Shown: one piece after another, positions 27 to 46,535 of the stretch
Position numbering within the stretch: position 1 is the first letter of the stretch
How the letters are laid out: each line of letters begins with the position of its first letter
Origin: an uncultured Acidobacteriota bacterium
Lineage (GTDB): Bacteria > Acidobacteriota > Vicinamibacteria > Vicinamibacterales > UBA2999
Assembly (NCBI GenBank): GCA_963734635.1
Contig: CAVTIA010000014.1
Coordinates: 720,192 to 784,191 of the forward strand
Reading direction: 5' to 3'
Length of the DNA: 64,000 nucleotides
Made by a program: the position numbers and the translations under genes
Notes under the pieces: model-generated
What the model was told of the DNA's origin: nothing
Seen by the model: only the letters and a program-made list of their open reading frames with translations
Databases searched by the model: none

Positions 27-972
27 TTAGCCCCGTTCCTTCGTCAGCATGTGCGACAGATCGAAGTCGAGGCAGGGCGGGTCTTCCAGGTAAGGCGCAT
101 CGCTCGTATTGAGCGGCATTGCCCGGGGATCCATCTCCCACGGCTCCATCAGCACGTCCGGATCGTGGACGGTCGCCTGGTAATGCAGCGTGTTGCCCTC
201 GCGGCGCAGCCGCTCGACGACTCTCATGTTGTTCGTGTGGAACCATCCGGGCCAGCCCAGCCAGCTCACGTCGTTGAAGCCGATCACCTCGATGACGAGC
301 GTATCGCCCTCCCAGCGTCCAACGGAATCACCCATGAACGTCTGGTCCTGCGAGTTGACCGGATCGTGGGGGCGTCCGTCGGTGGGGATGACGCGCCAGG
401 TGTTCCTGTTCTGGTACAGCAGGACGACGTCCTTCGGAGTCTGGAGGATCCGCATTGGCGGGCCGAGTCGGGGAACTCCCGGCGGGAAACACGAGAACGT
501 CGTGTCTTCCTTGTTGCCGTTCTCATCCAGATACTGGACGCGTTCCCAGACTTCGGGCTTGTACAGCGGCGGGTTGCCGAAGGCCCGTTGCGTGAATCCA
601 GCGTCACGCTCCGAGTAAAGGTTGTTGCCGTGACGGTAGTTCGGCTGGCGCCCGACGATCTTCGCGTTTGCACTCACCCTGCCTGCGGCGAGCGCTGCCG
701 AGTACCTCCGAATAATGCTCGAACTGATGGACTTGTCCGTTCGGCTCGATCGCCTGCACTCCACCGGCGCCGCCTGCACCGCCGCCTCCACCTCCCCATC
801 GTCCGCTGAGATCCGGCTTCCCGTCGGAGGTACGCGGAGTGGGCGCCGAGGTGGATGGGGCATTCGAAGCTGGCCGTGTCTGTGCCGCAGCGTCGAGGTA
901 GATCAGCAGCAGCGACACGGCGGCCGCTCCGGCAACAGTGACAACAAAGCGACGAACGGGACCGCACGTCAT
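27..972 (-). pseudogene. secreted conserved hypothetical protein (paralog of 23330..24169); frame broken by an apparent 1-nt indel near 690-730
   Basis: Signal peptide and TPRTSDGKPDLSGRW lie in the 604..1038 frame (ATG 972 preceded by GAGGAG). VIPTDGRPHDP and GDSVGRWEGDTLVIEV lie in the 27..863 frame. Both parts are colinear with the intact paralog; 946 nt = 3n+1. Confidence 0.6.
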
Positions 973-986
973 GAAAGTCTCCTCGC

Positions 987-1412
987 TCACTTCGTATCCG
1001 CGCCCGTACTCGTGGCCTCGGACTTGTACTGGTGCCATAGATCGATCTTCCGGCCGTCCGGCAGGATGAACGTCAGGACATATCCATTCGGCGATTTGTC
1101 TCGAGCGCGCGCGACGATCGCCGTATATGTTTCACCCGTCTTGAACACGTCCCGTCCGCTGATCCCGATGTCGCGAAAGCCGCCCGGACCGGCGCCGGAG
1201 ATGGTCCAGGTCGTTACCTTGCCGCTCTCGTCCTTGACGTCCAGGAACCAGCGCACGTGCGGGTTGATCCACAGAACCTTCGTCAGCACGCCGGTGAGCG
1301 TGGCATGGTCGTCCTGGTCGAACGCGGCCTGAACGGCATGATGAGCCCGCAGGTCCGCCGCTGCCCAGAGCAGCGCGCCCAGTATCAATGCCCCCGCAAA
1401 TCCGTAACGCAT
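987..1412 (-). CDS. DUF6152-like small secreted protein
   Basis: 141 aa with signal peptide ending ...DLRA|HH. Shares TGVLTKV..W.NPH...LDV blocks with 24264..24701 and 46652..47068. Confidence 0.75.
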   Translation of the reverse strand: MRYGFAGALILGALLWAAADLRAHHAVQAAFDQDDHATLTGVLTKVLWINPHVRWFLDVKDESGKVTTWTISGAGPGGFRDIGISGRDVFKTGETYTAIVARARDKSPNGYVLTFILPDGRKIDLWHQYKSEATSTGADTK

Positions 1413-1439
1413 TGCCGACCTCCTCGAGAAATTCGTTGA

Positions 1440-2342
1440 CTAGCGCGCTGCCGCAGCTTTCTTGATGTTTTCGGGCACTGGCATCACGACGTAAGGATTA
1501 TATGTCTGGCTTTTGGTCAGCGTCAGATCCATGAGCTTGACGCCGTTCCGCTCGGCGACGATGCGGCGAGGAAGAAGGGCGTCACTCTTGTAATCGTCGG
1601 CGTTCAAATCGCGGTAATCCGAGTACGTGATGACGGTGACCGCATTGTTGAGGCGTACCTCGACGCGCTCGATCCTGTGGCTGAAGTAGCGACGTACACC
1701 CGTGGGCATGGTGTGAAACAAGAAATTCTCCGGGTCCAGCGTCGCCTTCACGGTGCCACTCTGCAGTGGAGCAGGGAGGGGGAACGTGATCACGGGCTTG
1801 CCGCCTTCCGTTGAGAACATTGCTTTGGCGCCAGCCAGCCGCGCCGCCTTGATCACCCCTTGCGGAAGCGTCCAGGCTCGCAGCAGCCGCTCCTGGGCAG
1901 ACTGGTTCATCGGCGTCGCATTGCGACCTGGCTCTGTCTCGTCCCACGCCAGCTCGCCTGCTACCACCTGCACATGCCGATCAGCTTTCTGTCCTCCGGC
2001 TGCGGCACACGCGAAATCGACGCGCATCGCCGGTACTGGATGTTTTTCCCGCCGATCCGCGGCAGGATACCGAACGCTCGCGCGGTAGTCCGTCAATTGA
2101 CAGTTCCGGCCCTGGACGTCGATCGATCCGGTGGCCCAATACTCGAACGTGACGACGCCGTCCCGCTCCTGAGGGCCGCGAATCATGCCGATGGCGTCGG
2201 CCGCTTTATAGAGGGCGGACTCGAGATCGGTTGCCGGTTGCGCCGGCGGGAATGCAGCCTGCGGTGCCTGCGCCGCCAGCGGCGCTCCGACGAGAACCGC
2301 GAGCACAAAAGGGATGACCAGGACGGATGCGACTCTTTGCAT
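1440..2342 (-). CDS. secreted hypothetical protein
   Basis: 300-aa ORF with signal peptide (VLVGAPLAAQA). Its C-terminal ITYSDYRDL block resembles MDYSDFRDV in the C-terminal domain of 47267..48448. First gene of a 3-gene minus-strand run. Confidence 0.6.
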   Translation of the reverse strand: MQRVASVLVIPFVLAVLVGAPLAAQAPQAAFPPAQPATDLESALYKAADAIGMIRGPQERDGVVTFEYWATGSIDVQGRNCQLTDYRASVRYPAADRREKHPVPAMRVDFACAAAGGQKADRHVQVVAGELAWDETEPGRNATPMNQSAQERLLRAWTLPQGVIKAARLAGAKAMFSTEGGKPVITFPLPAPLQSGTVKATLDPENFLFHTMPTGVRRYFSHRIERVEVRLNNAVTVITYSDYRDLNADDYKSDALLPRRIVAERNGVKLMDLTLTKSQTYNPYVVMPVPENIKKAAAAR

Positions 2343-5488: not shown

Positions 5489-6595
5489 TTACAGCGAGGC
5501 GAGATATGCGGCGATGGCGATCATCTCGTCGGGACTGAGTTTCGAGACGACCGGCTCCATGATCGCGCTGCGTCGCGTGCCCTGCTGATAGTTGTATAGC
5601 TGCCGTACGGTGTAGCTGACGCTGCGGTCGGCGATCGGCGGCACATCACCCGCGCCGAGCAGATTCGCGCCGTGGCATGCCGCGCACTGCATTGTCGTAC
5701 CGCCACCCGTGGTGACGAGCGCCTTGCCTCGTCCGAGGGTGCCGTGTGGCACGTAAGCCACGAAACCCCCTTTAGGATCGCGCAGCCGTTCGGTGCGATC
5801 AGGAAATTCCGGCACCTCGATGAATCGCCGGCCCAGCGGCTCGGTGTCCTGGCCGAGCGGTATGAACAGGCCGGCGGCAGACTGACGCGTCCGTGGCGCC
5901 ATGTCGCTCTCGACGACCTTGACCCACGGCTTCCACGCGATGGCCGAGTAGTACTGCGCGGCCGCCCTCATCTCCGCCTCGGTGAGGAACCGGGCGATCT
6001 GAGCCATCTCAGCATGATTGGCCTTCCTGGGATCGGCGCTCGTGCGCCCGCCGCTCCTGAACAGTGCGAGCTGCTGCAGGAAGTAGTTGACCGGAAGAGC
6101 GGTCACGTGGCCGTTCTCGGGCTTGCCCTGGCCGTTGTGGTAATGGCAATGCGCGCAGGCACGCAGCCGGTCGCTCTCGCGGCCGCGCTGCACGATGTCG
6201 GGCACTGGCGACGGATGCTCGCCGGGGTACCAGTCGGCCGGGTCGTAGTGCGCCTGGATCTGCGTAATCGTGAACACACGGTCGCTGCCCGGAAGGCGAA
6301 GCAGCGCGGGATCGTCCTCCCAGGGCCGACCAGGCCGCGAGCAGGTGTACGGCTTCGCGTCCGGGGGACAAGGTGGTGGCAGGGGATCGGGTCCTGGTGT
6401 GACGTAGCCGTACGCCCACGGCAGCGGGTTCGGTGCGGGTACCTGACCCGCGGCTACCGCCATCCCGATAACGGTGACGAGTAACAGCACAAACGCCCCG
6501 GCCGCCCGCGCGGAGCGCGGGCAATCAAACGCTGCACGAGCGAGGCGGAGCCGCGCCGCATGCTCGCTGGTCTGAGGCGAAGCCTCGCTCGTCAT
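5489..6595 (-). CDS. dihaem c-type cytochrome, secreted
   Basis: Two CXXCH motifs (CAHCH, CAACH). Paralog of 48700..49704 with a shared ending [10 protein letters not shown]. The ATG overlaps the mdh stop (ATGA). Confidence 0.8.
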
Positions 6596-7629: not shown

Positions 7630-8797
7630 TCACGCTGACTGATACAGCTTCGTCAGCACGAACTCGCGATGGCCCATCACCTCGGCGCACGTGAGCCGTC
7701 CGTTGCACGTCCGGACGACCATGTCGATGAGTTGATCGCCCGCCTTGTCGAGCGTCAGCTCGCGTCGCAGGATCCCCGATACGTCAAGATCAATGTGCTC
7801 CACCATCGTCCGCGCCGTCTTCGGGTTCGCGGTGAGCTTGATGACAGGCTCGATCGGGTTGCCGATGACGTTCCCTTGCCCGGTCGGAAAAAGGTGAACG
7901 ACGAAACCGGCCGCGGCCTGAAGCGTGATGCATTCCGCTGCGGCCGACGACGTGTCCATGTAATAGAGCCCGGGGCCTTTCGACGGCGCTTCCGCCGGTT
8001 TGAGCACATCGATGAACTTGCTCTTCCTGCCGATCTTCTGCAGGTTCCCAAACGCTTTTTCCTCGATGGTGGTCAGACCGCCTGCGATGTTGCCCTTGGT
8101 CGGCTGCGATTCCGACAGGTCGCTGGTCTTGTGGCGGTTGATCACCTCCTGGTATGCGTTGAAGACGCTGCATGAACTTGCCACGCACCTCGGGAGTGGC
8201 CGCCCGATCGGCGCACACCATCTCGGCGCCCGTGAGCTCCGAGGTTTCGCCGAAGCAGGTCGTCACGCCCATCGGATCGAGCTTGTCGATCAGATTGCCG
8301 ACCGTCGGACACGACGCGAGCCCTGAAGTGGTGTCGCTCTCTCCACACTTGGTGGAGATGAAAGCTTCTTCGATGGAGCACTTCTCGCGCTGCCGCTCCG
8401 ATGCCCACTGCATCAGTTCGCGCGCCTTGCGCGAGGCGTTGGCAATAGTGGTGATGTCGCCATGTTCTTCGATGGAGAAGCCGGCGACGGGCTTGCCGGT
8501 TTTCGCGATGCCGTCGACAACCCGACCTGTCCAGGACGGCTCGATACCGATGACCACGCAGGCTGCCACATTAGGATTCGACCCCGTACCGATGAGCGTG
8601 CGGAAGAACAACTCGAGATCCTCACCGAACTGCAGCCGACCGTAGGCATGGGGGAGCGCCAACGTGCCCTTGATGTTGTGCGCCACCGCCTCGCACGCGG
8701 CATTCGAAAGGTCATCGAGCGGGAGAATGACTACATGATTACGAACGCCGACGCGCCCGTTTTCGCGTCGGTATCCATAGAATTCGTAGCGTCCCAC
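7630..8797 (-). pseudogene. UxaA-family (altronate/galactarate-type) dehydratase large subunit; apparent 1-nt indel near 8165-8185
   Basis: GTG 8797 lies 1 nt after the small-subunit stop. The N-terminal part ([21 protein letters not shown]...) is in the 7790..8866 frame and the C-terminal part (...[21 protein letters not shown]) in the 7630..8184 frame; 1168 nt = 3n+1. Confidence 0.75.
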
Positions 8798-8798
8798 G

Positions 8799-9083
8799 TC
8801 ACCACCTTTTGGTCTTGAGATTGTGCACGTGCACGTGGCGGCCCTTCGGAATGTCGGCCACGGCACGACCCACGTCGTACCCGTACTTCAGCACCGTGTC
8901 GCCGCTCTTGATGTCCGCCAGCGCGATCTTGTGTCCGAGCGGCACGGTGTCGAGCGCTTTCACGCGGATCGTCTCGTCGGTTTCCATGATCCAGCCGGTC
9001 AGTTCTTTGTTCGGTTGTATGTCTTCCACGACGGCAACGCCGACCGTGTCGGCCTTGTCGTGCACGATGAAATCAGTCGGCAT
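8799..9083 (-). CDS. UxaA-family dehydratase small subunit (SAF domain)
   Basis: 94 aa; [16 protein letters not shown]...[19 protein letters not shown] is typical of the SAF/UxaA N-terminal module. Confidence 0.8.
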
Positions 9084-9227: not shown

Positions 9228-10931
9228 CTAATAGCTAAACACATATACCGCACCCGAGTCGTCCGCGGAGTTGTCGGCCTGATTGCCACCGATGCCTTTC
9301 GATGAGCCATCCTCGTTGTGCGCGCCGACCGCCATGATTCTGCCGTCGGTGCTCAGTGCCACGGCGCTTCCGAACTCGTCGCCCGCCTCCGTGTTGGACC
9401 CCTTCACGTAAGCTCGCTGTGTCCAGGTCGCCCCGCTCCGCGTGTAGAAATACACCGCACCCGATTCCTCCGCCTGCTTGCGCTGCTCGCGCCACGGATC
9501 GAGATGGTCGACGATGAGGAAGGGTTGCGGTTCCGGTGCACGGACGCCCTGGGCCGCATTGTCCTCGAGGTACGCGGTTACGGCGAGCGTGTTGCCGTCG
9601 CCGCTCAGTGCGAGCTTCACACCGAACGAGTTGTACGGACGAGGATTGTTGGCCTTGATGAACGCCTGCTCGGTCCACGTCGTCCCGGATCGCACGAAGA
9701 CGTACGCCGCTCCTACCCAGATGTTTGCAGCGCCGCGAGGTGGTGAATCGTTGTCGCACCCTGGAGGATTGATGCCGGGCGTCAGGCAATCCTCATCACC
9801 GGCGCCCGCCGCTACCGTGTTCCCGTCGTCGCTGATCGCGACGACGTATCCGAGCTGATCGGTGGCTTCGGTGCGGGATCCTTTGATGTATGCCTGCTGC
9901 CTCCATGCGCCATCACTGCGCGCGAACACGTACAACGCGCCGGCGCCGCCAGCGGTGTTGTCGCGCGGACCGTTGATGGTTCGTCCAGAGCCCCGTTCGT
10001 CGAACGCGCTGGTCACGAGCGTGTGGCCGTCAAAGCTCAGAGCTACCGCAAACCCGAGCATATCGCCGGCCTGAAGGTGCGAGCCCTTGAGGTACGCCTG
10101 CTGCGTCCACGAGGCGCCCATCCGGTTGAATACGTACACCGCCCCGGCGGACTGCTGCGAATCGTCGCGCTCGTTGCCGTTTACCTGCTGCGCCGCACCG
10201 TCTTCCGAGATTGCGCCCACGGCGAGTGTGTTGCCGTCGCCGCTCAGCGCCAATGAATAGCCGAACTGATCGCCGTCGCCGGGCACTTCGCCTTCTCCGG
10301 CCCTTCCGGTGTTCGAGGCTTTGATGTACGCCTGTTGCGTCCACGTGCTTCCCGCGCGACTGAAGACGTATACAGCGCCTGCCTGGCGGAGCGAGTTGTC
10401 GTTCTGATCGCCGTTGATTCCGGTTGCCGCGCTCGATTCCCAGGGCGCAGCGACAGCCAGGGTGTTGCCATCCCGGCTCAAGGCCACCGAGGCGCCAAAG
10501 TGATCGCTCTGGTCCGCATTCGAAGCCTTGATATACGCCTGTTGCACCCAGGAGCTGCCCTGGCGGGCGAACATGTACACAGCGCCGGATGCGTAGGCTG
10601 AATTGTCGTTCTGGTTTCCGTTGACGCCTGTCGAGCCACTGCTTTCGTACGGCGCGCCGACAACCATCGTGCTGCCGTCGCCGCTCAGGGCAATCGAATT
10701 GCCATTGTGACCCTGGTTGCCGCCGCCGTCGGCGAAGTAGTCGTAGGCCTCCGCGTTCGATGCCTTGATGTAGGCAGTCTGTTTCAGGGGCAGTAAGGGT
10801 GTCGCGGTTCGCACCTGCGATGATAGATGCCCTTCCGCGACAAGGATGATAGCCAAGGCGATGGCGTGGTGAATGTATCGTTCACGCTTCTGGGTTCTCC
10901 GTTCTCCGTTCGTGTTCAGGTTCGGTTCCAT
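9228..10931 (-). CDS. FG-GAP/integrin-like repeat beta-propeller protein, secreted
   Basis: About 8 repeats of W.QQAYIKASN...D.FG.SVALS.DGNT.AVGA..E.S..G.NGNQ.DNS...GAVYVF. The start is uncertain: the first in-frame ATG (10931) lies inside the palindromic element. Confidence 0.75.
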   Translation of the reverse strand: MEPNLNTNGERRTQKRERYIHHAIALAIILVAEGHLSSQVRTATPLLPLKQTAYIKASNAEAYDYFADGGGNQGHNGNSIALSGDGSTMVVGAPYESSGSTGVNGNQNDNSAYASGAVYMFARQGSSWVQQAYIKASNADQSDHFGASVALSRDGNTLAVAAPWESSAATGINGDQNDNSLRQAGAVYVFSRAGSTWTQQAYIKASNTGRAGEGEVPGDGDQFGYSLALSGDGNTLAVGAISEDGAAQQVNGNERDDSQQSAGAVYVFNRMGASWTQQAYLKGSHLQAGDMLGFAVALSFDGHTLVTSAFDERGSGRTINGPRDNTAGGAGALYVFARSDGAWRQQAYIKGSRTEATDQLGYVVAISDDGNTVAAGAGDEDCLTPGINPPGCDNDSPPRGAANIWVGAAYVFVRSGTTWTEQAFIKANNPRPYNSFGVKLALSGDGNTLAVTAYLEDNAAQGVRAPEPQPFLIVDHLDPWREQRKQAEESGAVYFYTRSGATWTQRAYVKGSNTEAGDEFGSAVALSTDGRIMAVGAHNEDGSSKGIGGNQADNSADDSGAVYVFSY

Positions 10932-11051
10932 GTTCGGGGTTCGAGGTTCGGCGTTCGAGGTTCGCCCCATGAACATGGAACGTTGGAACCTTGAACCCAC
11001 AACCGAACGTGAACACGAACAGAGAAATGTCAGAACCGAGAAGCGTGAACG
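10879..11051. repeat. ORF-less hairpin copy (173 bp) of the 37667..38357 element
   Basis: Termini CGTTCACGCTTCTGGGTTCTC... and ...GAACCGAGAAGCGTGAACG are reverse complements and match the termini of the ORF-bearing element. Confidence 0.7.
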
Positions 11052-11066
11052 ACGCATCATTTGACG

Positions 11067-12758
11067 CTAATACACGAACACATACGCCGCGCCGGAATCG
11101 GCCGCCGAATTGTCGGCCTGATTGCCGTTGATTCCTGTCGCCGCGCTGTCCTCGCCATGGGCGCCGACCACCATCACGTGCCCGTCGGTGCTCAGCGCCA
11201 ATGAGCTTCCGAATTCATCGCCCGCGTCCGCGTTGGCGGCTTTGACCCACGCGCCAGCCGTCCATCTGGTGCCGCTGCGCGTGTAGAAGTACACGGCGCC
11301 GGATTCTTCCGCTTCGTTCCGGTGCTCACGCCAGCCGTTCAGCATGTCCTGAATGAGGAATTGCTGGACCATCGGCGGCCGGATACCACGGCCTCCGTTG
11401 TCCTCGAGGTACGCTGAGATCGCGAGCGTATTCCCGTCGCCGCTCAGGTCGAGCCTGACGCCAAACGAGTTGTACGGCCGTGCGTTGGGCGCCTTGATGA
11501 ATGTCTGCTCCGACCAGGTGGTGCCGTTTCGAACGAACACGTACGCTGCGCCCACCCAGATGTTCGCGCCCCGGTTGGGCGGTGCATCGTCGGCACAGCC
11601 GGGAGGATCGATGCCCGGCGTCAGGCAGGCCTCGTCGCCGGAACCGACGGCGATCGTATTGCCGTCGTCGCTGATGGCCGTCGCAAAACCAAAGCCGTCG
11701 CTGGTTTCACCCTTTGAGCCTTTGATGTACGCCTGTTGGCTCCAGGTTCCGCCCTGACGCGCGAAGACATAGAGCGCGCCGGAATTCTGCGACTCGGTGT
11801 TGTCGGGAGGATTGATTCCCCTGCCGCCACCGTCTTCGTCGAATGCGGCGGCGGCGAGTGTGTTGCCGTCGAAGCTGAGCGCCACCGAAAACCCTAGACC
11901 GTCCCCTGCGCCCATGTTCGCGCTCTTGACGTAGGCCTGCTGCGCCCACGTAGTGCCCGTCCGCGCGTACACGTAAACCGCGCCGGCAGACTGCGCCGAG
12001 TCGTCGCCCTGGTTTCCATTGATCTGTTGCGCCGCGCTGTCTTCGCTGATGGCACCGACCGCCAACGTGTTGCCATCGCCGCTCAGCGTCAGCGAAAAGC
12101 CGAACTGGTCGCCGTCGCCCACGAGCGTGCCTTCGCTAGCCTTCCCCGTGTTGGACGCCTTGATGTAGGCCTGCTGCGTCCAGGTCGTACCGGTACGGGT
12201 GAAGACGTAGACAGCGCCGGACTGCGGGATCGAGTTGTCGTTCTGGTTGCCGTTGACCCCCGTAGCGCCGCTCGCTTCCCAATGGGCGGCAATCGCCATC
12301 GTATTGCCGTCGCGGCTCAGCGCGACCGACGAGCCGAAATGATCACTCTGACCGGGGTTGGAGGCCTTGACGTACGCCTGCTGCGTCCACGAATCGCCCT
12401 GGCGGACATACACGTAGACGGCTCCAGACGCGTAGACGGAGTTATCGCGCTGGTTGCCATTGACCCCGGCGGCGCCGCCGCTCTCGAACGCCGCGCCGAT
12501 GGCCATTGTGGTGCCGTCGCCATTCAGCGCGATCGACGTTCCCGTGTGACCCTGGTTTCCGCCCCCGCACGCGAAATGGTCGTAGGCTTCCGCGTTCGAC
12601 GCCTTGATATACGCCACCTGTTTGAGCGGCAGCACCGGCGGCACTTCCTTGTTCAGCGTCGGCGCCTGCGCAATCAGGTAGCCCGGAATGAAGAGAAGCA
12701 CGACGAGGGCGGCTATTCCGCCGGGATGCCGCATTACACGAGCGCTGATCCGTGACAT
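11067..12758 (-). CDS. FG-GAP/integrin-like repeat beta-propeller protein, secreted
   Basis: ATG 12758 is preceded by AAGGAG that overlaps the upstream TAA. Signal peptide IAALVVLLFIPGYLIAQA; same repeat unit as 9228..10931. Confidence 0.8.
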   Translation of the reverse strand: MSRISARVMRHPGGIAALVVLLFIPGYLIAQAPTLNKEVPPVLPLKQVAYIKASNAEAYDHFACGGGNQGHTGTSIALNGDGTTMAIGAAFESGGAAGVNGNQRDNSVYASGAVYVYVRQGDSWTQQAYVKASNPGQSDHFGSSVALSRDGNTMAIAAHWEASGATGVNGNQNDNSIPQSGAVYVFTRTGTTWTQQAYIKASNTGKASEGTLVGDGDQFGFSLTLSGDGNTLAVGAISEDSAAQQINGNQGDDSAQSAGAVYVYARTGTTWAQQAYVKSANMGAGDGLGFSVALSFDGNTLAAAAFDEDGGGRGINPPDNTESQNSGALYVFARQGGTWSQQAYIKGSKGETSDGFGFATAISDDGNTIAVGSGDEACLTPGIDPPGCADDAPPNRGANIWVGAAYVFVRNGTTWSEQTFIKAPNARPYNSFGVRLDLSGDGNTLAISAYLEDNGGRGIRPPMVQQFLIQDMLNGWREHRNEAEESGAVYFYTRSGTRWTAGAWVKAANADAGDEFGSSLALSTDGHVMVVGAHGEDSAATGINGNQADNSAADSGAAYVFVY

Positions 12759-12769
12759 ACGCCAACTCC

Positions 12770-14644
12770 TTACTCGCGGAATTTCACGATGAGGTGCGCT
12801 TTGTTGGATGTTCCGTTGCCCCACTGGAGTCCGATTTCCGGATGAAGCGGCCATGGATTCCGAACGACGATGTCGTGCCAGCCGGGCTCGCGGAGAAGAC
12901 TTCCGTCGATCACGACCTGCAGCTCGGATCCGCTCACGGCCTTGTACGACACTGGAACGCCTTTGAACAATACCTGCGAGCGCCGCACGAAATTAAAACC
13001 ACGAAGGGTGACCGTTGCCGACGCCGTGCCCTCGGTGACCATCAGCGGGGTGATCGACTCGATTGCCGGCTGCGGTGACTCGATGGGATTCGGCAGCGGC
13101 TGGCCCGGCCCGACCGGGCGATTGCCGTTGAAGCGTCCGCCGCTCCCGTTAAAGGCGACGGGCCGGAACGCGTTGACCCAGAGCAGCGCGTCGACCGGGG
13201 TATTCAGTTCTGACTCGCGCTTGAAGACCGGGTTGTAGCCGGCGCTGTATCCGAGCTGGACGCGCTTGCCGTTGAAGATGACGGTGTCCACCTGCTTCAG
13301 GTTTTCGACATTCTGCAACGGATCCGCGTTGACGATGACGATGTCCGCGATTTTACCGGCCTCGATCGTGCCGAAGTCCTTGCCGCGATCGATCGACTCA
13401 GCAGCCCACTTCGTGGCGCCCTGGATGATCTGCATCGGCGTGATGCCTGCCTCGATGAAAATCAGCATCTCGTGGATCAGACTGTTCCCGGGTACCCGCT
13501 GCGGATTCGTGTTCGCGCCCGGCAGCACGTGACCGCCGGCGTCGGCGAACATCTTGTGGAAGCGCAGCGCATTCCGATATCCCTGGAGTCTGCGCTCGCG
13601 CACCGCGCCAGTTCCGCCGGGCCGGCCACGATAGACGGCGAGCGCCGTTTCGACCCGCTCGGGCGGGTAGTAGGAGAGGAGCGCAGGATCCGCCGTCTCG
13701 AAGAACCGGCGATCCTCGAGCGCAAACTTGTCCCAGTCTCGCTGGAAGCCGCCGTAGGTGGCACGGAACGTCGGCGTCAGGGCGACATTCTGTTTGACGA
13801 GCAGCGCGATCAGCTCCCTGGCCTTCGCCTCGTCCATCTCGGAATACAGGTCGGCCTCGTTTCGCGGGTCGTCTTCGCTCGTGACCGGCGTCCGGGCGAC
13901 CGTGCGGCCGATTCCGGCCGAATGCGGCAGGTTGCGTGTGCCGAGCATTGCGGCTTCGAGAGGTCCGAGGATGGGCCCATACGCCCGCATGAATGTCGGC
14001 TTTCCGAGCCTTCGCGCCTCGTCCGCCCCCGCCTTGTAGATCTCCATCGGCAGGCCGCCTTCGGCGAACTGAATCATGTCGGCTCCCAGTTCGACCCAGG
14101 CGCGGACGAGCTCACGCGCCTCCTGGCCCGTCTTTGGGGTTCGCCCGGGCGTGCCAGGCGTTTCGAGGCCGGTGCCGCCAACGGGTTCGGTGGTGAACCT
14201 CGAAAGGCCGGTGAACGGACGCGGCCCGCGTACGAACCCCTTGTGCACCGCGTCCCGGTGCGGCGCGCCGATTTCGCCCGCTATGCCGACGTCAATCGTG
14301 GACGTGATGCCGTAGTTCAGCATCACCTCGCCGTAATACCAGTTGTAGCTGACCTGTGCATCCCACAGTCCGGGCAGGATGAACTTGCCGTCCGCACGAA
14401 TCACCTGCGCACCAGCCGGAATCGCAGTCTGGCCTCGACGCGAGACGCTGGTGATTCGATCGCCCTGGACGATGACCAGCGCGTCGATTACCGGCGTTCC
14501 GCCGTTACCGTCGATAAGGGTGCCTCCGTCAATTACCAGCGGCGCTGGCGCCTGCGCGTCGACCAGGCCGGGCATGATCCCGGCGAGCGCCATGGCGCCG
14601 ACCACGGCCAGAGAGCGGAGAAGGACTGATGCTCGCATTCGCAT
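12770..14644 (-). CDS. secreted amidohydrolase-family metallohydrolase with C-terminal Ig-like (IPT/TIG-type) domain
   Basis: GGTLIDGNGG...ADGKFILPGLWD and GKIADIVIVNADPL are amidohydrolase N- and C-terminal signatures. The tail VTLRGFNFVRRSQVLFKGVPV resembles IPT/TIG. Confidence 0.7.
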   Translation of the reverse strand: MRMRASVLLRSLAVVGAMALAGIMPGLVDAQAPAPLVIDGGTLIDGNGGTPVIDALVIVQGDRITSVSRRGQTAIPAGAQVIRADGKFILPGLWDAQVSYNWYYGEVMLNYGITSTIDVGIAGEIGAPHRDAVHKGFVRGPRPFTGLSRFTTEPVGGTGLETPGTPGRTPKTGQEARELVRAWVELGADMIQFAEGGLPMEIYKAGADEARRLGKPTFMRAYGPILGPLEAAMLGTRNLPHSAGIGRTVARTPVTSEDDPRNEADLYSEMDEAKARELIALLVKQNVALTPTFRATYGGFQRDWDKFALEDRRFFETADPALLSYYPPERVETALAVYRGRPGGTGAVRERRLQGYRNALRFHKMFADAGGHVLPGANTNPQRVPGNSLIHEMLIFIEAGITPMQIIQGATKWAAESIDRGKDFGTIEAGKIADIVIVNADPLQNVENLKQVDTVIFNGKRVQLGYSAGYNPVFKRESELNTPVDALLWVNAFRPVAFNGSGGRFNGNRPVGPGQPLPNPIESPQPAIESITPLMVTEGTASATVTLRGFNFVRRSQVLFKGVPVSYKAVSGSELQVVIDGSLLREPGWHDIVVRNPWPLHPEIGLQWGNGTSNKAHLIVKFRE

Positions 14645-20997: not shown

Positions 20998-23262
20998 TCA
21001 GCGCCCGTCACCGCCGGGCAGTTTCAGCCGTGTCAGCAGCGCCGGAAACCCGGGATGCGCGCGGATCGCGTCGTATTCCGGGTCACAACCGAGCCGCCCG
21101 AGGAACCCGTTGCCATCGCTGATACCGCGATTGAGCCACTCGATCGCCTCGTCCGTGCGATTCATGCCGACCAGTACACGTCCGCCACCCAGCAGGGTGC
21201 GATGTATTCGGTGTCACTGCGCGTCAGCAGTTCCTGCAGCGCGCGTTCGGCGTCGGCGGTCCGCCCGGCCCGGGCGTACGCGAAGCCGAGCGTCGAGACG
21301 AGCACCGGCTGGCGATCGCCCACGCTGACCGCGCGTTCCGCGGTGACGACCGCCTCGTCGCTGCGCCCGCTGGCGGCCTGGAAAAGCGCCCTGATCCAGT
21401 GCGGGAACGCGGCCTCGCGCTCGAACTCGAGGGAGAGTCGTGTATAGCGATCCGCGCGCTCGAAGTCGCGACTCCAGTACGCGACGCCGCCCGCAAGGTA
21501 GGCGATCACGGCGGAATCAGGCTCCAGCGCCACGGCAGCGTCCGCGGCGCGCACCGCGTCGTCCGGGCGCCCGACGCACGCCCAGAGCAGCCCGAGATAG
21601 GCCTGGCTCACCGCAAGCTTCGGATTGAGCGCGAGGGCGCGCTGATAGCCGGCTTCGGCGGCGGCGTAATCGTTCCGGATCCACTGGGCGGTGGCCCCGA
21701 CGCTGTGGTGCGCTTCGGCCAGCGAGGGGTCGAGCGCCAGGGCGCGATCGGCTGCGGCGATGGCGAGCGGCCCGAGTTCCCGGCCGGGCCGCACACCGTA
21801 AATGGCCATCACCGTATAGCAGTCGGCGATGCCGGCGTGCGCGAGCGCATAATCGGGATCGGCGGCCGCCGCCTTCTCGAAACACTCGAGCGCGGTCCGC
21901 AGGTGCCACCGGTTGCGTCGGGCCCAGTGGTACCGGCCCTTGAGGCAGAGCGCGTAGGCCTCGGGGTTGTCGGTGGCCTTCCGCACGAGTGGCGTGTCAC
22001 TGCCGCGCGTCAGTTTCACGCGGAGGCGTTCGGCGACGGTGCGGGCGATCTCGTCCTGCACGGCGAAGACATCGTCGAGGTCGCGGTCGTAGCGCTCCGT
22101 CCACAGCTCATATCCGTCGCCCACGTTGGTGAGCTGCGCCGTGATGCGCACGCGGTTCCCGGCCTTGCGGACGCTGCCCTCGACGACGTGCTGGACGTTC
22201 AACCGCTGACCAATCTCCGCGATGTCCAGCCCCTTCTCATGGCAACGCATCGCGGAGGTCCGGGAGGCGACCTGCAACGCGCCCAGCGCCGAGAGCGCAG
22301 TGATGATTTCGTCGGCGATGCCCTCGCAGAAGTACTGCTGATCGCCGGCGGGGCTCGAGATCCTTGAACGGCAGCACGGCGAGCGACGGCAGGGCCCTGG
22401 CGGCCGGGTGGTGACCGCCGCTCGACTGCCGCGCGCGCAGGATGGCGCGAAGCTCGTCGACGATGTCTCTTGCATGCTGGGGCCTCGCTTCAGGCGCCTT
22501 GGACACGGTCCGCGCGATCAGACGCTCGAGTCCGGAGGGGAGGTTCGCCACGAAGCCCCGTAGCGGCACGTCTTTGTTGAGAATCGCGTCGAAGATGACG
22601 GCAGTCGTGCTCCCGGCAAACGCCGGACGGCCGCTCAGCATCTCGTAGAGCACGAGCCCGAACGAGAAGATGTCGCTCCGCCCGTCCACCACGTCCCCTC
22701 GCGCCTGCTCCGGCGACATGTAGGCCACGGTGCCGAGCACGTCGCCGGCAACGGTCAAGCCTGCCTGGGTGACATCCACGGGAACGTCGGTCCGCTTCGC
22801 GAGGCCGAAGTCGAGTACTTTCGCGTGGCCGGCCGGGGTCACGATGATGTTGGCCGGCTTCAGATCGCGGTGCACGACGCCGCCGGCGTGCGCCGCATGC
22901 AGCGCGTCCGCGATCTCGATGGCCAGCGCCAACGCCTCGTCCAGCGGCATCGGGCGGCCGGCGATGCGCGCCGCGAGGGTGTCGCCATCGACGAGTTCCA
23001 TGGCGATGAAGTGCCGGCCGTCGACTTCGCCGACATCGTAAACCGTGCAGATGTTCGGATGATTGAGCGCGGCCGCGGCCCGCGCCTCGCGGCGCAGCCG
23101 TTCGGCGGAGCTCGGCCCCCGGCCATCCTCGGGAAGGAACTTCAGTGCTACGGGTCGATCGAGGCGGACGTCGATTGCGCGATACACGACGCCCATGCCG
23201 CCAGCGCCCAGTGGAGCAACGATCTGGTAGACGCCGAGACGCGTGCCGGGGAGAAGGCTCAC
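20998..23262 (-). pseudogene. Ser/Thr protein kinase with C-terminal TPR region; two apparent frame breaks (near 22355 and near 21175)
   Basis: [16 protein letters not shown] and [19 protein letters not shown]|[17 protein letters not shown] continues in the 21162..22475 frame. The tail MNRTDEAIEWLNRGI...DPEYDAIRAHPGFPALLTRLKL is in a third frame, ending at TGA 20998. Confidence 0.75.
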
Positions 23263-23329: not shown

Positions 23330-24169
23330 TCAGCGGGGTTGCGCCTGATCGGGCGACCGCATGAACAGCGACGGCCGCTTCAGGTACTCCTGATAGCGGG
23401 CCGGATCCAGGTTGTTTTCCGCACAGACGTACTCGCGGACGCGAACGCCCTCGCGGAGCATGAGCGTGCGGCGAATCGTCCACGGCTTGGCGAGCAGCTC
23501 CGGATCCTCGATCACCGCCTCGTAGTTCAACTGATCCTTGTCGATGCGCGTATAACGTTCGGTGATGTGCAGCTTGTCGCTGCTGACGATGCCGGCGGCG
23601 AGCCAGTTGCCCTCCTTGAAGTTGTTGACATCGACGACGAGCGTGTCGCCATCCCACCGCCCAACGGAGTCGCCTTGGTACGTCGGTTCGGCATCATCGG
23701 GGTGTGGGCGGCCGTCGGTGGGAATGATTCGGACGGCATTGAAGTACTCGTAGATGATGACGACCTGCCCGGGCGTCTGTACGAACTGAATCGGGAAGAG
23801 GATAACGCCGGTCATCCGCGGACCGGCCGAAGGCAGGCAATACGCCGTCGGATCGTCGATCGAACGCCGGTTGAGCAGCTCCTGCGTGCGCTGTCGCGCC
23901 GATGGCAGCAGTGATGGCGGCTCGTTCTGCGGGCCGCCCCCCTGTCCAGGCGCCGACGGGTCCCATTCGCCGCGCTTCGGGCTCGACTGGTACACACCGT
24001 TCAAGTCGACCCTGCCGTCTGGGGTTCGCGGCGTGGCAGCCTGTGGCGGAAGGGCAGCATTCCCCGGCGACGTTTGGGCGACCGCGGAAGCAATCAGCAC
24101 CAAGGACGCGATGACCACCACGGCGACGACGCCGGCGGCGCCTGTCACGCGGGCACTCATGCCACTCAT
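23330..24169 (-). CDS. secreted conserved hypothetical protein (intact paralog of 27..972)
   Basis: ATG 24169 (or 24160), signal peptide VVAVVVIASLVLIASAVA, then IIPTDGRPHPDD and GDSVGRWDGDTLVVDV. Confidence 0.7.
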   Translation of the reverse strand: MSGMSARVTGAAGVVAVVVIASLVLIASAVAQTSPGNAALPPQAATPRTPDGRVDLNGVYQSSPKRGEWDPSAPGQGGGPQNEPPSLLPSARQRTQELLNRRSIDDPTAYCLPSAGPRMTGVILFPIQFVQTPGQVVIIYEYFNAVRIIPTDGRPHPDDAEPTYQGDSVGRWDGDTLVVDVNNFKEGNWLAAGIVSSDKLHITERYTRIDKDQLNYEAVIEDPELLAKPWTIRRTLMLREGVRVREYVCAENNLDPARYQEYLKRPSLFMRSPDQAQPR

Positions 24170-24263: not shown

Positions 24264-24701
24264 TCAGTTACCCGGCGCGACGGCAGCGCCTTCACCGGTT
24301 CCGGACAGAGGTCCAAAGAACAGATGTTTGCCGCTGGGCAGCGTGACCTCTCGTCCCAACGCAAAGGGAGAATCGTCCCGCGCGCGCCATCCGACAACCG
24401 TCAGGGTGTCACCGATTTTGATGGTTCCCTCCCGCGACCAGCCCGTGCGGTAGAGCACGACTGACGGGTAGCCTTCGAATACCCAGGCCACCACTGCCCC
24501 GTCCTTCTCCTTGACGTCCAGGTACAGATGACTGTGAGGATTGGTCCACTGCACCTTGGTCAGGACACCGGTGATGGTGACCGGCTTGTTGGCGTCGAAG
24601 GTTGCTCCGAAGGAGTGATGCGCCCAGACAGGCGCCGCACCACTGAGCGCCGCGAACAGCGCGAGGCCGGACGCCACCGCGAAAACCGGACAGGTACGCA
24701 T
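24264..24701 (-). CDS. DUF6152-like small secreted protein
   Basis: ATG 24701 preceded by AAGGAGG; signal peptide ...APVWA|HHSFGATFD; 145 aa. The rest of the 369-aa track ORF upstream is non-coding-looking. Confidence 0.8.
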   Translation of the reverse strand: MRTCPVFAVASGLALFAALSGAAPVWAHHSFGATFDANKPVTITGVLTKVQWTNPHSHLYLDVKEKDGAVVAWVFEGYPSVVLYRTGWSREGTIKIGDTLTVVGWRARDDSPFALGREVTLPSGKHLFFGPLSGTGEGAAVAPGN

Positions 24702-24797
24702 GCGGCCTCCTTGAAGGTGGTGCCATTCTAGAGCAGAACTCTGTTGTCCATCTCTTCGGCAGATGGCGATATGCTGGGTGGAACCGGAGGGTCTCGC

Positions 24798-25970
24798 ATG
24801 AAGTGGATGGTGACGATGTGTGCGCTCGTGGGCTGGGTCGCGGGTGGGGTGTCGGCCTCCGCGATCACGGGCGATCAGCCAGAGTTTCGTAAGCTCGCCG
24901 AGGACGTCTATGCCTACATCGGCAAGCTGAACGACTCGAACGCGATGGCCATCGTGACCACCGAAGGGGTCGTCCTCGTGGACACTGGCAACAACACGAC
25001 GGACACGCGCGAACTGCTGAAGCATGTCCAGTCGGTCACGAGGCAACCGGTGCGCTACGTCGTCATCACCCAGAATCACAATGACCATTCCGGCGGCGCC
25101 GCGCTCTTCTCGCCCCCGGCAAAGACCATCGTCCATGAGCGGGTCGCGAAGCAGTGGGCCAGCCTGAAGCCCCATCAGATCACCGCGTGGCGGCGGCGCT
25201 TCCCCGAGCGGACGGCGGCGCTCGAACGCCTGAATCCGACCGACACCATCCAGAGCGTCGGGAATCAGTTCACGCTTCGTCTGGGCGGCAAAGAGATTCA
25301 GTTGATCTACGTCGAGGACGAATACAATCCCGGCGACATCGCGGTCTGGCTGCCGAAGGAGCGCATCCTGCACGCGTCAATGGCGGGCTACAAAGACCGC
25401 CATCCCGACATCCGTCCCGACTACAGCCATGGGACGACTGAAGGGCTGCTGAAGCAACTGAAGACGTACCTGGCGCTGCGCCCCGCGACCGTCGTCCCGG
25501 CGCACGGGCCGGTGGGCGGCGGGTGGCTGCTGGAGGGCATGATCGAGTACTACCTGCTCGCCCGCGACCAGGTGCAGGAGATGATGAAGAAGGGGGTGCC
25601 GCTGGCCGCCGTCGAAAAGGAGTTTCAGATGAAGTCGTTCAGCGGGTGGGATCGCACCGAGCACCTGCCTTGGATCGCGGCGACTATCCATCGCGAGCTG
25701 CAGGGTCTCGGGCCGCAGGTCATCACGGTCGCCGAACGGCGGCTCAGCGGCGTCGTTTCGAGCGCTGTTCAGGATGGCCGGTTTGTAACCGTGACCACCG
25801 GCGACGGGACGCAGGTGCGACTTCGCGTCACCGGCGACACAGTGTTCGAAGGGATCGGCGACCGGACCGAGATCAGGTCGGGGATGAAGGTGTCAGCGGC
25901 GTACGAGGTGCCCGACGGCATCGTGCCGGCGCTCGGCTTCGATACCCTCGAATTAACGGTGTCCCGCTGA
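24798..25970 (+). CDS. secreted MBL-fold metallohydrolase with extra C-terminal domain
   Basis: ATG 24798 preceded by GGAGGG; VVLVDTGNN...VVITQNHNDHSGG is a variant HxHxDH motif. Confidence 0.65.
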   Translation: MKWMVTMCALVGWVAGGVSASAITGDQPEFRKLAEDVYAYIGKLNDSNAMAIVTTEGVVLVDTGNNTTDTRELLKHVQSVTRQPVRYVVITQNHNDHSGGAALFSPPAKTIVHERVAKQWASLKPHQITAWRRRFPERTAALERLNPTDTIQSVGNQFTLRLGGKEIQLIYVEDEYNPGDIAVWLPKERILHASMAGYKDRHPDIRPDYSHGTTEGLLKQLKTYLALRPATVVPAHGPVGGGWLLEGMIEYYLLARDQVQEMMKKGVPLAAVEKEFQMKSFSGWDRTEHLPWIAATIHRELQGLGPQVITVAERRLSGVVSSAVQDGRFVTVTTGDGTQVRLRVTGDTVFEGIGDRTEIRSGMKVSAAYEVPDGIVPALGFDTLELTVSR

Positions 25971-26008: not shown

Positions 26009-27721
26009 CTAGTCGAGCGGCTCCAGCTTCACGATAGAGCCACCGTGATTGCTGCCGACCCAGAACGTCACCGGGCTGGTGGAGTTGTCCACCCACACGC
26101 GCCGGATATTGGTCGGGTTGGGGAGAAGGTACTCCGTGAACCGACCGGTCTTCGTATCGAGCCGCACGATCCGGTCGTTCATCATCGATCCAGTCCACGC
26201 CTCGCCGTTCTTGTCGATGACGACGTCGTAGGGGTTGGACCAGGCTGTGGGAACAGGCCATTCCTTGATCTGCTTCGTCCTCGGGTCGAGCACTCCGATG
26301 GCGTTGCCGTCGTATTCGGCAAACCACAGGCGGTTCTGGTTGTCGACGCTTCCCCGGCGCGGCCGCGAATTCGGGATCGCCGTGCGGAGGATCTCCAGTT
26401 TCTTCGTGGCGCCGTTGAGGATGCCGATGTTCGCGGCGTTGAAGTCGAGCATGTACAGATTGTTGTTGTGGTCGGCGTTGATGCCGTAGGAGCCGATCGT
26501 GCGCTTCGTCTCGGGGTCGGCAAAAGTGCCGAAGTTCTCCCAGGTGCTCGTCGCAGGATCCAATCTCAGAATCTGCGCTCGGTCGGAGTTCTTCACCCAC
26601 ACCTTGCCGTCGACGTGCGAGAAGGTCGGCGAGGCGAAGGACTGCTGCGTGGCATCGGTCTGCCATTCCTTCGGGACGGACCAGGTCTGGACCTTGCCCG
26701 TCTTTCTGTCGAGTTTCGCGACGCCGCCCTGATACATCAGGGCGACCCAGAGGTTGCCATCCCGGTCGAACTCGAGATCGAGCGTCCCGACGGGGAATCC
26801 GTCCTTGATCTGTGGAATCGGATATTCGGTGACCTTGCCGGTCTTGGGGTCCATCTTCCCCACGAAGAGCGCGCCGAAGTCCGAGTACCAGACCATGCCG
26901 TCGGCGTCGACGACGACGTCATGCGGCTCGATGGTCGTGCGCGGCAGATCGTATTCGGTGACAACCATGCGCGTGCCGCGCCCCGAGGGGCGCGGCAGCG
27001 TCTTGAACGCGTAGTCGTGCATCGGCCCATCGCCCAGGTTGACGGTGGCCAGCCATTCGGCGGCGGCTTTCGCCCGGGTATCAGCGCCCATGCCGCCTTC
27101 GCCCCCCATGGCGTTGCCTGCGCCCCCGCCCAGATTGCGCCGCGCCGTACCCACGAGCCGCTGTGGACGCTGCAGTGTGCTGCCGGGATAGTAGCCAGCC
27201 ATCCGCTCGAGGACCTGCAGGAACTGCCCGGCGTCGTGCCTGGAATTCACGATGGGCGTGTAGGAATGGCAACTGTTGCAGGAGAGCAGGAACTTCTTCT
27301 GCTGATCGGAGCCGGGCATGCTCGCCAGCCACTCGGCGTTGGTGAGCTGCGAGGCGAGATCCTTCGTCGGACGCAGCGTGAGGTCCGCGTTCGCCGTTAC
27401 GCCGGGGCGCACATCGATCGCAGTCCGCCCAGGGAGCTCGTAACCGATCGCGCGGATCCTCAGCGCGTATTCGCCCGGCTCGAGCTTCGCCGCAGGGAAG
27501 CTGTAACGGCCCGTGTCGTCGGAGACGACTGAAATGGCGGCGGTGGAGCCGCTCTTTCTGGCGGTGACCACCACGCCTTCCATGGGGCCTTCCTGTTCGG
27601 AGTTGACACGACCGGTCAGGGCCACGCCGGCCTGCGCCTGCGTCGACGACCAGCCCCATCCAGTGTGGATGACGAGCGCCGTCAGTCCAACGACCGCGGC
27701 AAGCCCTAGAGTCTTTCGCAT
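26009..27721 (-). CDS. CarboxypepD_reg-like domain + CXXCH haem motif + beta-propeller (NHL/virginiamycin-B-lyase-like) secreted protein
   Basis: GRVNSEQEGPMEGVVVTARK...DDTGRYSF, then LSCNSCH, then repeated D.DG.VW-type blades; 570 aa, intact. Confidence 0.7.
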   Translation of the reverse strand: MRKTLGLAAVVGLTALVIHTGWGWSSTQAQAGVALTGRVNSEQEGPMEGVVVTARKSGSTAAISVVSDDTGRYSFPAAKLEPGEYALRIRAIGYELPGRTAIDVRPGVTANADLTLRPTKDLASQLTNAEWLASMPGSDQQKKFLLSCNSCHSYTPIVNSRHDAGQFLQVLERMAGYYPGSTLQRPQRLVGTARRNLGGGAGNAMGGEGGMGADTRAKAAAEWLATVNLGDGPMHDYAFKTLPRPSGRGTRMVVTEYDLPRTTIEPHDVVVDADGMVWYSDFGALFVGKMDPKTGKVTEYPIPQIKDGFPVGTLDLEFDRDGNLWVALMYQGGVAKLDRKTGKVQTWSVPKEWQTDATQQSFASPTFSHVDGKVWVKNSDRAQILRLDPATSTWENFGTFADPETKRTIGSYGINADHNNNLYMLDFNAANIGILNGATKKLEILRTAIPNSRPRRGSVDNQNRLWFAEYDGNAIGVLDPRTKQIKEWPVPTAWSNPYDVVIDKNGEAWTGSMMNDRIVRLDTKTGRFTEYLLPNPTNIRRVWVDNSTSPVTFWVGSNHGGSIVKLEPLD

Positions 27722-27792
27722 GGAAGCCTCCCAGCCGGGCCAATCTTAGGCCTTCCCGCCCGGTTTGGCCAATGCAGGGGCATGTATTATTT

Positions 27793-27829
27793 GAGCGTTC
27801 GGATCGTTCGAACGTTCGGGCGTTCGGAG
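27793..27829. repeat. CGTTCG word-repeat tract upstream of 27836
   Basis: GAGCGTTCGGATCGTTCGAACGTTCGGGCGTTCGGAG, with a central palindrome CGTTCGAACG. Confidence 0.5.
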
Positions 27830-27835
27830 TGCATC

Positions 27836-28914: not shown

Positions 28915-29327
28915 GGAAAGTTGCATTGCTCACGGGCGCGATCGCACTGGTTGCCTTGTCGATTGCGGCGGCACAGACCAAAACGGTCTGGGACGGCGTC
29001 TACAGCGAAGCGCAGGCAGGCCGCGGCAAGAAGTCGTACATCACGCACTGCGCGTCGTGCCACAACGAGGGGCTGCAGGGCGGTGACCTCGCGCCGGAGC
29101 TGAAGGGGGAGAGCTTCCTCCTGCGCTGGAACGACAAGTCGATGTTCGAGTTCGTCGATCGGGTGCAGAAAACGATGCCGCAGGACAATCCCGGTGGGCT
29201 GAACGCGCAGGAGAACGGCGACATCGTCGCGTATATCCTGCAGGTGAACAAGATGGCGCCCGGCTCCGCGGATCTTTCGTCGGACGCAGCGGCGCTGAAG
29301 GCGATCACCATCACGAAATCCAAGTAG
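28911..29327 (+). CDS. monohaem c-type cytochrome, secreted
   Basis: The ATG overlaps the upstream stop (ATGA). Signal peptide, CASCH, and NGDIVAYILQVN. The stop TAG lies inside the GTAG of a REP hairpin. Confidence 0.8.
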   Translation: MRKVALLTGAIALVALSIAAAQTKTVWDGVYSEAQAGRGKKSYITHCASCHNEGLQGGDLAPELKGESFLLRWNDKSMFEFVDRVQKTMPQDNPGGLNAQENGDIVAYILQVNKMAPGSADLSSDAAALKAITITKSK

Positions 29328-31432: not shown

Positions 31433-34099
<2,667 letters not shown>

Positions 34100-46339: not shown

Positions 46340-46535
46340 GAATGCCTCCGACTGGACCGCTATGCGGCTCGAAAACCCGCGAATCTTGTACTCGTTATGA
46401 ATCCGCATAGCGGTCCTGGGCGCGCGGAGCGCACCAAGAAGACGCTGCCAATCAGCCAAGGGCATTCTCGCCGGAAATCAAGGGCAGGCCCTTGGCTGGG
46501 TGGATGATGACGAAAGGCGGATTGTACAGAAATCA

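Follow-up and report, generated by a model that had tools for sequence, protein, structure and literature searches.

The DNA considered here is a 64-kb Vicinamibacterales-like chromosome segment of contig CAVTIA010000014.1, which we call the window, and our subject is a group of secreted-protein genes that is arranged around DUF6152 (PF19649) and occurs in it three times. We distinguish four components: D is the DUF6152 protein, A is the type encoded at 23330..24169, B is the type encoded at 1440..2342, and C is the type encoded at 47267..48448. In total, the window contains three D genes, two A genes (∼280 aa), one B gene (300 aa), and one C gene, all of which lie on the minus strand with intra-module gaps of 27, 14, 94, and 198 nt. 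Module 1 has the order B-D-A. Its first gene (1440..2342) encodes a secreted protein that has no match in Pfam or NCBIfam and carries a domain with the motif YSDYRD; it is followed by D1 (987..1412), which has an LRA|HH motif, a mature N-terminus predicted to be His-His, and an NPH motif, and by A1 (27..972). Module 2 has the order D-A and consists of D2 (24264..24701) and A2 (23330..24169, 279 aa, secreted). Module 3 has the order C-D; in C (47267..48448), an N-terminal two-haem cytochrome is joined to a B-like C-terminal domain (residues ∼150-393), and D3 (46652..47068) has a GTG start. The scores against PF19649, for which the gathering score is 27 bits, are 57.6 bits for D1, 95.9 bits for D2, and 65.9 bits for D3. 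The three closely packed, same-strand modules centered on DUF6152 that a sequence-only reading of this DNA had proposed are thus present as described.

The three modules are anciently diverged paralogs of a single conserved Sec-exported cassette. A recent segmental duplication was rejected, as the paralogs are merely 24-40% identical, which is the range of the pairwise identities among the three D copies. The products of the two A genes had been taken for paralogs, and this is borne out by an alignment of 27..863 with 23330..24169 (38% identity over 152 aa, E 3e-33); both are secreted IPTDGRPH / GDSVGRWEGDTLV proteins. The earlier description of 27..972 as one secreted protein is correct in that an A gene is present, but the gene is not a single open reading frame (ORF). 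The N-terminal 122 aa (604..972), which comprise the signal peptide and the first ∼90 residues, are out of frame with 27..863, and alignment to intact orthologs (88% and 74% identical, the former at positions 7580-8533 of locus L005) places one extra base near 705, between ...HYSE and YSAAL.... For A2, locus L006 has a sequence that is 91% identical, and B is matched at 100% identity by a soil metagenome contig.

Conservation of the gene linkage

Linkage was judged from an A-centered scan, a B-centered scan, and six individually examined diverse DUF6152 genes. The scan with the A profile supplied a sample of 80 genome loci (one genome per species), mostly from Acidobacteriota (Vicinamibacterales, Bryobacterales, Terriglobia) with a few from Gammaproteobacteria, and the scan with the B profile supplied 80 metagenome loci; genes were called in the A-selected loci by hidden Markov model (HMM) searches over six-frame ORFs. 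D is contiguous with A on the same strand in 52 of the 80 A-selected loci, where the orders are D-A (29 loci), A-D (8), A-A-D (7), and D-A-A (5), plus longer arrays. Three unrelated loci encode D+A fusion proteins (L003/L004 8388-9440, L078 448-1572, and L086/L087 3742-4869), in every one of which the D domain is N-terminal and directly behind the signal peptide. In L001 and on the P0338 contig, the ends of the two genes share 4 nt. We take these fusions and the overlapping stop and start codons as evidence that D and A are physically coupled.

The linkage of B is equally regular. It is followed by D or A on the same strand in all 69 B-selected loci with at least 500 nt of downstream sequence and by both D and A in all 45 with at least 1500 nt (26 B-D-A, 19 B-A-D). 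A C-type gene is also present in 28 of the B-selected loci, usually as the fourth gene (B-D-A-C or B-A-D-C) and upstream of B in five; C lies in or beside D/A cassettes in these 28 loci and in 8 further ones. Among the A-selected loci, C stands within or beside D/A clusters in L070, L076, L081, L082, L083 (two copies, with the order C-D-A), and L084. The order B-D-A(-C) is seen in the orthologous loci L003, L004, L005, L093, and L095. The C-D order of module 3 is kept in L170, where the C ortholog (P0354, 73-75% identical) has a counterpart of the window's divergent cytochrome before it and, 45 nt after it, a DUF6152 gene whose product is 77% identical to D3. The first partner in module 3 had been read as fused to a cytochrome. 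A B-like domain does stand behind the two haems, but C is no substitute for B: it co-occurs with B in B-D-A-C loci and accompanies it as a separate member of the cassette. The closest relatives of module 1 for which enough DNA is available (L005, L093, and L095) have the order B-D-A-C, with the C gene about 0.4-0.5 kb after A. Since the A1 stop is 26 nt from the window edge and these relatives continue into C, module 1 is probably cut by the window boundary, with its C gene lying just outside.

The six sampled DUF6152 proteins are 38-46% identical to the window copy in an alignment of 34 diverse D sequences. Five of their genes have A or an A-sized gene as neighbor; it is an HMM-confirmed A in L086 and L088 and a Pfam-less gene of A size in the other three. 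At L089 (4001-6037), the DUF6152 gene is followed by the gene of a DUF6644 protein, a Pfam-less membrane-looking ORF, and the start of a TonB-dependent receptor, and DsbD_N and a LysR regulator lie upstream of it; this alternative partner set could inform function.

Taken together, more than 100 independent loci from other genomes and metagenomes show the gene orders of the cassette again, and this recurrence exceeds chance. The linkage of DUF6152 to both of its partner families, for which a neighborhood check had been suggested, is therefore found well outside the window (52/80 A-selected loci; 69/69 and 45/45 B-selected loci). The core is the D-A pair, which is often extended by B, with a domain of ∼270 aa, and by C. 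A clustering of the neighbors in 160 loci gave no gene as regular as these four. We consider it very probable that D, A, B, and C make up one functional cassette.

DUF6152 carries an invariant N-terminal motif

D is a secreted protein of ∼115 aa. In the alignment of 34 diverse D sequences, the invariant positions are Ala-His-His where the signal peptide ends, an Asn-Pro-His ∼26 residues further on, and three Gly; Asp36, Trp52, Trp73, and Glu76 are near-invariant, and no Met is conserved. The His-His pair is found in 77 of the 79 D domains across the loci, with a small residue at the -1 position in 76 of those, and the two D domains that lack it are N-terminally incomplete matches (profile starts 33 and 36). 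The NPH motif follows the pair after 24-29 aa in 76 of 77 D domains. Among database DUF6152 proteins, the pair is present in 100 of 104, and the four exceptions, which have long nonhomologous N-terminal stretches, are probably mis-called starts. From the predicted cleavage site, His-His would be the first two residues of mature D. A free N-terminal His is a natural metal chelator. The motifs suggest an N-terminal-histidine metal site, and D probably binds metal through its first histidine. In a 2025 study, the combination of a signal peptide and an N-terminal His served to identify new secreted proteins for Ni, Cu, and Zn, which were then verified (PMC12537917); DUF6152 is not among the families in that study.

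The AlphaFold2 (AF2) model of D2 is an oligonucleotide/oligosaccharide-binding (OB) fold with a predicted local distance difference test (pLDDT) score of 85.7 and a core above 95. A Foldseek search with the model returns the LysRS anticodon-binding domain, SSB, PriB, and Stn1, in generic agreement with an OB fold. Judged by secondary structure, the loop that follows strand 1 would hold the NPH motif, and Trp73 and Glu76 would fall on strand 3, which is the usual ligand face of OB folds. No Pfam family other than DUF6152 was matched by D, CusF_Ec and BOF included, and a search of the D profile against PDB sequences returned nothing meaningful.

Component A models as a calycin-type barrel

A is a large family for which Pfam has no entry; the candidates scored for it form more than 5637 clusters at 90% identity. 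A Pfam scan of 40 members at E up to 5 gave noise alone, and nothing meaningful came from a search of the A profile against PDB sequences. The AF2 model of A2 has a pLDDT of 71.5 overall and mostly 76-95 over the barrel residues 126-238, and the top Foldseek matches, weak in score, are all calycins (SAHS, UnaG, a Bacteroides lipocalin, and FABP-like barrels). On this basis, A models as a ∼250-aa calycin-type up-and-down beta-barrel. Conserved features in 173 A sequences are an N-terminal PRxxDGxPDLxG, the pair Cys111-Cys249, which is present in A2, the motif GxxxGxWxGxTLVV, and a small number of charged residues; His156 and His196 are kept in merely 75-90% of the sequences. Comparison of A with B by hhalign showed the two to be unrelated.

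B and C share a domain

B has 238 relatives, of which every named one is from Acidobacteria. In 65 B sequences (43-100% identity), a Cys81-Cys112 pair and a C-terminal TYNPYVxxPxP are conserved, and there is no conserved His. A Pfam scan of 30 B members at E up to 5 gave noise alone. The N-terminal domain of C matches CytoC_RC (7.8e-13) and NF033196 (73.4 bits, compared with a cut-off of 70) and has the haem motifs CEDCH and CFSCH, in line with the earlier reading of 47267..48448 as a two-haem cytochrome. Two CXXCH motifs precede the C-terminal domain in every complete C-type gene. The family of the C-terminal domain has 3354 representatives at E ≤ 0.001.

A similarity between B and this C-terminal domain had been proposed from a YSD[YF]RD block in both, with a profile alignment as the check. 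Direct comparison does not carry it: BLASTP of B against the cytochrome 47267..48448 is not significant (a 9-mer at E 0.38), HMM cross-searches stay under 10 bits and always fall on the same motif, and hhalign of the two profiles gives Prob 7-11% (P 0.003-0.005), colinear over 206-208 columns. The N-domain of a set of metallo-beta-lactamase (MBL) fusion proteins, in contrast, matches both profiles. With hhalign, B aligns to this intermediate at Prob 99.1% (E 4.5e-19, 236 columns), and the intermediate aligns to the C-terminal domain of C at Prob 96.8% (E 2.9e-10, 207 columns). Because the intermediate family strongly matches both, we take B and the C-domain to be homologous; on this profile evidence, the YSD[YF]RD block marks a real remote homology over the whole domain, established solely via the intermediate family. 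The same comparisons indicate that the shared ∼250-aa domain occurs alone (B), behind a dihaem cytochrome (C), or before an MBL domain. When the C-domain family was compared with Pfam, DUF6544 was matched by 8 of 27 members (best 7e-5) and DUF4292 and LolA_like by one each, all below threshold. The B/C-domain may be LolA-like, which we regard as a lead, not a result.

The fusion proteins with a B-like domain before an MBL domain are secreted and are encoded directly beside D/A genes (L005 4393-5904, L057 57-1541, L021 2536-4242, and L040 4475-6121). An A-like domain is likewise fused to an MBL domain in a secreted protein encoded directly beside DUF6152/A genes (L076 7385-9346). Of five MBLs associated with the cassette that were tested, four score best against TIGR04558/TIGR04559 (SoxH-like), which for the fifth comes a close second; with 40-89 bits, all stay well below the cut-off of 280-300 bits. 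These fusions hint at a hydrolytic branch of the system.

A candidate mechanism and its alternatives

The mechanism that we propose, tentatively and with somewhat less than even confidence, is a periplasmic metal center and cytochrome relay with ligand-binding barrels. Once signal peptidase has cut, mature D would begin with the invariant His-His. Together with the His of the NPH motif (His28, His29, and His56) and the conserved Trp, Asp, and Glu, this pair could form a metal site on the OB face. D would act in complex with A, and a ligand or substrate of low solubility may be accommodated in cavities of A, of B, and of the C-terminal domain of C. Electrons would pass through the haems of C to or from the metal center or the bound ligand, which would couple the unit to electron flow in the periplasm. 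What we infer here is that metal is bound, that a complex forms, and that electrons are transferred. The earlier suggestion that the module may handle electrons is strengthened by the regular presence of C and by a second recurrent cytochrome nearby (see below). According to PMC10916295, which cites Branch 2021, histidine-brace enzymes can be reduced by a c-type cytochrome domain. The numerous diverged copies in each genome and the tandem A genes point to a diversity of substrates more than to homeostasis of one metal. A more specific version, which we regard as speculative and improbable, is that DUF6152 could be the metal subunit of a new class of periplasmic oxidoreductases, with a histidine-brace-like center of Cu or another metal on an OB fold that is reduced by C and acts on poorly soluble or aromatic soil organics presented by A and B/C; the paralogs would then reflect different substrates.

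Several observations weigh against this mechanism. On the structural side, the Foldseek matches are weak both for D (best E 4e-3) and for A (E 3e-3 or worse, TM score 0.44-0.49 per target), the N-terminus of D is modeled poorly (mean pLDDT 61 over residues 21-30), the LolA-like label comes from sub-threshold Pfam matches alone, and the B and C-domain profiles found no relative among PDB sequences. There are no invariant metal ligands in A (173 sequences) or in B (65 sequences). C is near the cassette in just 7 of the 80 A-selected loci, so the redox link is not universal, and one clade of B-D-A loci is without C. The DUF6152 gene of L089 has membrane partners (DUF6644) in place of A. Finally, the many paralogs per genome and the variable neighbors provide no pathway context.

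An alternative that is unlikely in our view, although it survives better than the others, is that D is a periplasmic metal scavenger or chaperone (like "anglerase", DUF4198, CopC, or YcnI) that would pass its metal to A/B or to a transporter and catalyze nothing. The role of the cytochromes would be limited to setting the redox state of the metal, such as by turning Cu(II) into Cu(I) or Fe(III) into Fe(II), or they would have no part in it. The invariant N-terminal His-His does resemble that of proteins shown to bind Ni, Cu, and Zn for transport (PMC12537917), and in L089 D is accompanied by two small membrane proteins and a TonB-dependent receptor. TonB-dependent receptors are also found near 12 of the 80 loci and adjoin proteobacterial D genes, but by our own estimate, which is an uncomputed one, this frequency is about that of chance. 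A and B have no invariant clusters of His, Cys, or Met; a metal regulator, P-type ATPase, or ABC importer does not recur among the locus neighbors. Metal-homeostasis systems are usually single copy, whereas the cassette has many diverged paralogs and tandem A duplications.

Rather improbable, in our estimate, is a metal-independent shuttle or processing system for hydrophobic ligands (lipids, quinones, pigments, or products of aromatic breakdown), which A and B/C would ferry through the periplasm to hydrolases, for instance the fused MBL domains, and in which D would be an OB-fold adaptor whose His-His serves folding or partner docking. The calycin-type fold modeled for A would suit this role, as would the weak LolA_like, DUF4292, and DUF6544 matches of the C-terminal domain, the B-like and A-like domains fused to SoxH-like MBLs beside D/A genes, and the hydrolase-rich surroundings (tannase-like, amidase, sulfatase, and GH88 genes). 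Against it, the folds are weakly assigned, and a shuttle of this kind leaves unexplained why His-His stands exactly at the cleavage site, why D is always N-terminal in the fusions, and why there is a dedicated two-haem cytochrome. That the genes are chance neighbors from large family expansions in Acidobacteria and form no functional unit is scarcely credible: each family is multicopy per genome and the surrounding genes are variable, but same-strand adjacency in 52/80 and 45/45 independent loci, the fusions, the overlapping stop and start codons, and the conservation across Acidobacteriota and Gammaproteobacteria all contradict it.

Relation to known systems

The D proteins of the window share their length and the AHH and NPH motifs with Pfam DUF6152 (PF19649) and score above its cut-off. 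For PF19649 itself, neither a function nor a structure nor a partner has been described; what we add is the conserved operon and the interpretation of the N-terminal His-His. With the histidine-brace proteins (lytic polysaccharide monooxygenases (LPMOs), CopC, PmoD, YcnI) and the "signal-strapping" DUF4198, DUF6702, Ang-1, and Ang-2 (PMC12537917), D has in common an invariant His right after the predicted signal peptide, a second invariant His ∼26 residues further on, and a periplasmic or secreted location. LPMOs may receive electrons from c-type cytochrome domains. D differs from these N-terminal-His metalloproteins in its fold, since the examples described have an immunoglobulin-like or beta-sandwich fold (DUF4198) and the AF2 model of D is an OB fold; there is no sequence similarity, and the metal site of D is a predicted one. 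As a small periplasmic OB-fold protein, D also resembles the CusF/SilF metallochaperones and BOF (YgiW). CusF binds its metal on the face of the barrel, through His, Trp, and Met. D differs in having no CusF_Ec match, no conserved Met ligands, an N-terminal His-His, and other partners.

The other components have relatives of their own kind. The A model is an up-and-down beta-barrel like those of the calycins (lipocalin, FABP, avidin, SAHS, YceI-like, ZinT), to which A has no sequence relationship and to which it adds an N-terminal region of ∼90 residues (PRxxDGxPDLxG) and a conserved disulfide. The C-domain is similar to LolA/LolB-like proteins (LolA_like, DUF4292, DUF6544) in size and in its layout of an N-terminal helix followed by a beta-rich part, with weak matches; to our knowledge, no LolA-type protein fused to a dihaem cytochrome or an MBL has been described. 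The N-terminal ∼135 residues of C, with two CXXCH motifs, pass the cut-off of NF033196/CytoC_RC (non-photosynthetic homologs of the reaction-center cytochrome c subunit), and C differs from those proteins in having just two haem sites and an attached 245-aa noncytochrome domain. A literature search found no publication on DUF6152, PF19649, DUF6544, or a histidine brace on an OB fold, and none on any component of the cassette. No described system combines these parts.

Four families of hypothetical proteins are thereby joined into one testable conserved operon. All four are large and often found in the Acidobacteriota of soil, where this phylum is dominant yet little understood, and there is no Pfam model for A or B/C. 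If the metal site is real, it would place the N-terminal-histidine principle of metal binding on an OB fold; if the site also catalyzes a reaction, a new way in which bacteria of the soil oxidize recalcitrant organic matter could come to light.

Neighboring genes

The gene at 24744..25970 (plus strand) is divergent from module 2 and encodes a secreted MBL-fold protein (Lactamase_B 5.5e-17) that is nearest to SoxH-like TIGR04559, far below the cut-off. An MBL occupies the same position beside the module 2 counterparts in L002 and L006, and 24744..25970 is a possible but not established member of the cassette. We note that three secreted MBL-fold proteins are present in the 64 kb (the coordinates recorded for this set of genes are 24744..25970, plus; 52240..53244, minus; 28860..29327, plus; and 29422..30495, plus). 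Two of the three are SoxH-like, including the one divergent from module 2, and the third is subclass-B3-like with a small cytochrome c before it.

Two further c-type cytochromes are loosely associated with the cassette, one divergent from C (48493..49704, plus; Cytochrom_C 2.8e-14) and one 3.1 kb upstream of module 1 (5489..6595, minus). They are paralogs (E 3.9e-63) from a family of 368-403 aa that recurs divergent from C in L170; six metagenome loci (L092, L096, L106, L127, L126, and L121) also have a member close to B, in most cases upstream of it. Both match weakly a model named "periplasmic diheme shuttle PdsA".

Genes for CarboxypepD_reg-CXXCH-beta-propeller proteins had been pointed out near modules 2 and 3, and both exist, at 26009..27721 (minus, with Pfam matches) and 42376..44545 (minus); as members of the system, they fare less well. 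The two are paralogs, though distant ones (24% identity, E 2e-12), and their haem motifs align. Relatives lie near D/A/B in 11 of about 165 loci and are full-length in L002, L006, L070, L110, and L111 (relatives of 26009..27721) and in L008, L050, and L127 (relatives of 42376..44545). We regard the propeller proteins as occasional neighbors with a weak link to the cassette.

The window as a whole is rich in genes for secreted hydrolases, cytochromes, and kinases and has one TonB-dependent receptor. TonB-dependent receptors were rejected as cassette members because their occurrence near 12 of the 80 A-selected loci is, by the same uncomputed estimate, about that of chance, and tannase-like esterases (6 of 80), Zn-dependent dehydrogenases, and Ser/Thr kinases were rejected because each is near at most 6 of the 80. 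A 516-aa secreted protein with no NCBIfam match (40723..42273, minus) resembles the recurrent tannase/feruloyl-esterase-like ORFs, for which the enrichment is mild, if any. Ser/Thr kinases with TPR or Tricorn/PD40 propeller domains are found within a few kb of D-A (21162..23262, 31433..34099, L002 13792-15924, and the P0338 contig), which may just reflect the abundance of such kinases in Acidobacteria. Large secreted FG-GAP-repeat proteins are encoded in tandem at 9228..11060 and 11067..12854 and, directly downstream of D3, at 44724..46465.

Frame breaks

Besides A1, the propeller gene 42376..44545 is frameshifted relative to its homologs, between 42900 and 42929. A programmed frameshift in A1 was rejected in view of this second frameshift in an unrelated gene and of ORF overlaps elsewhere; assembly indels or gene decay into pseudogenes are the more likely source of the frame breaks. 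Further overlapping same-strand ORF pairs, which may be frame breaks as well, are 44724..45824/45422..46465, 21162..22475/22237..23262, 27782..28405/28240..28914, and 7630..8184/7790..8866.

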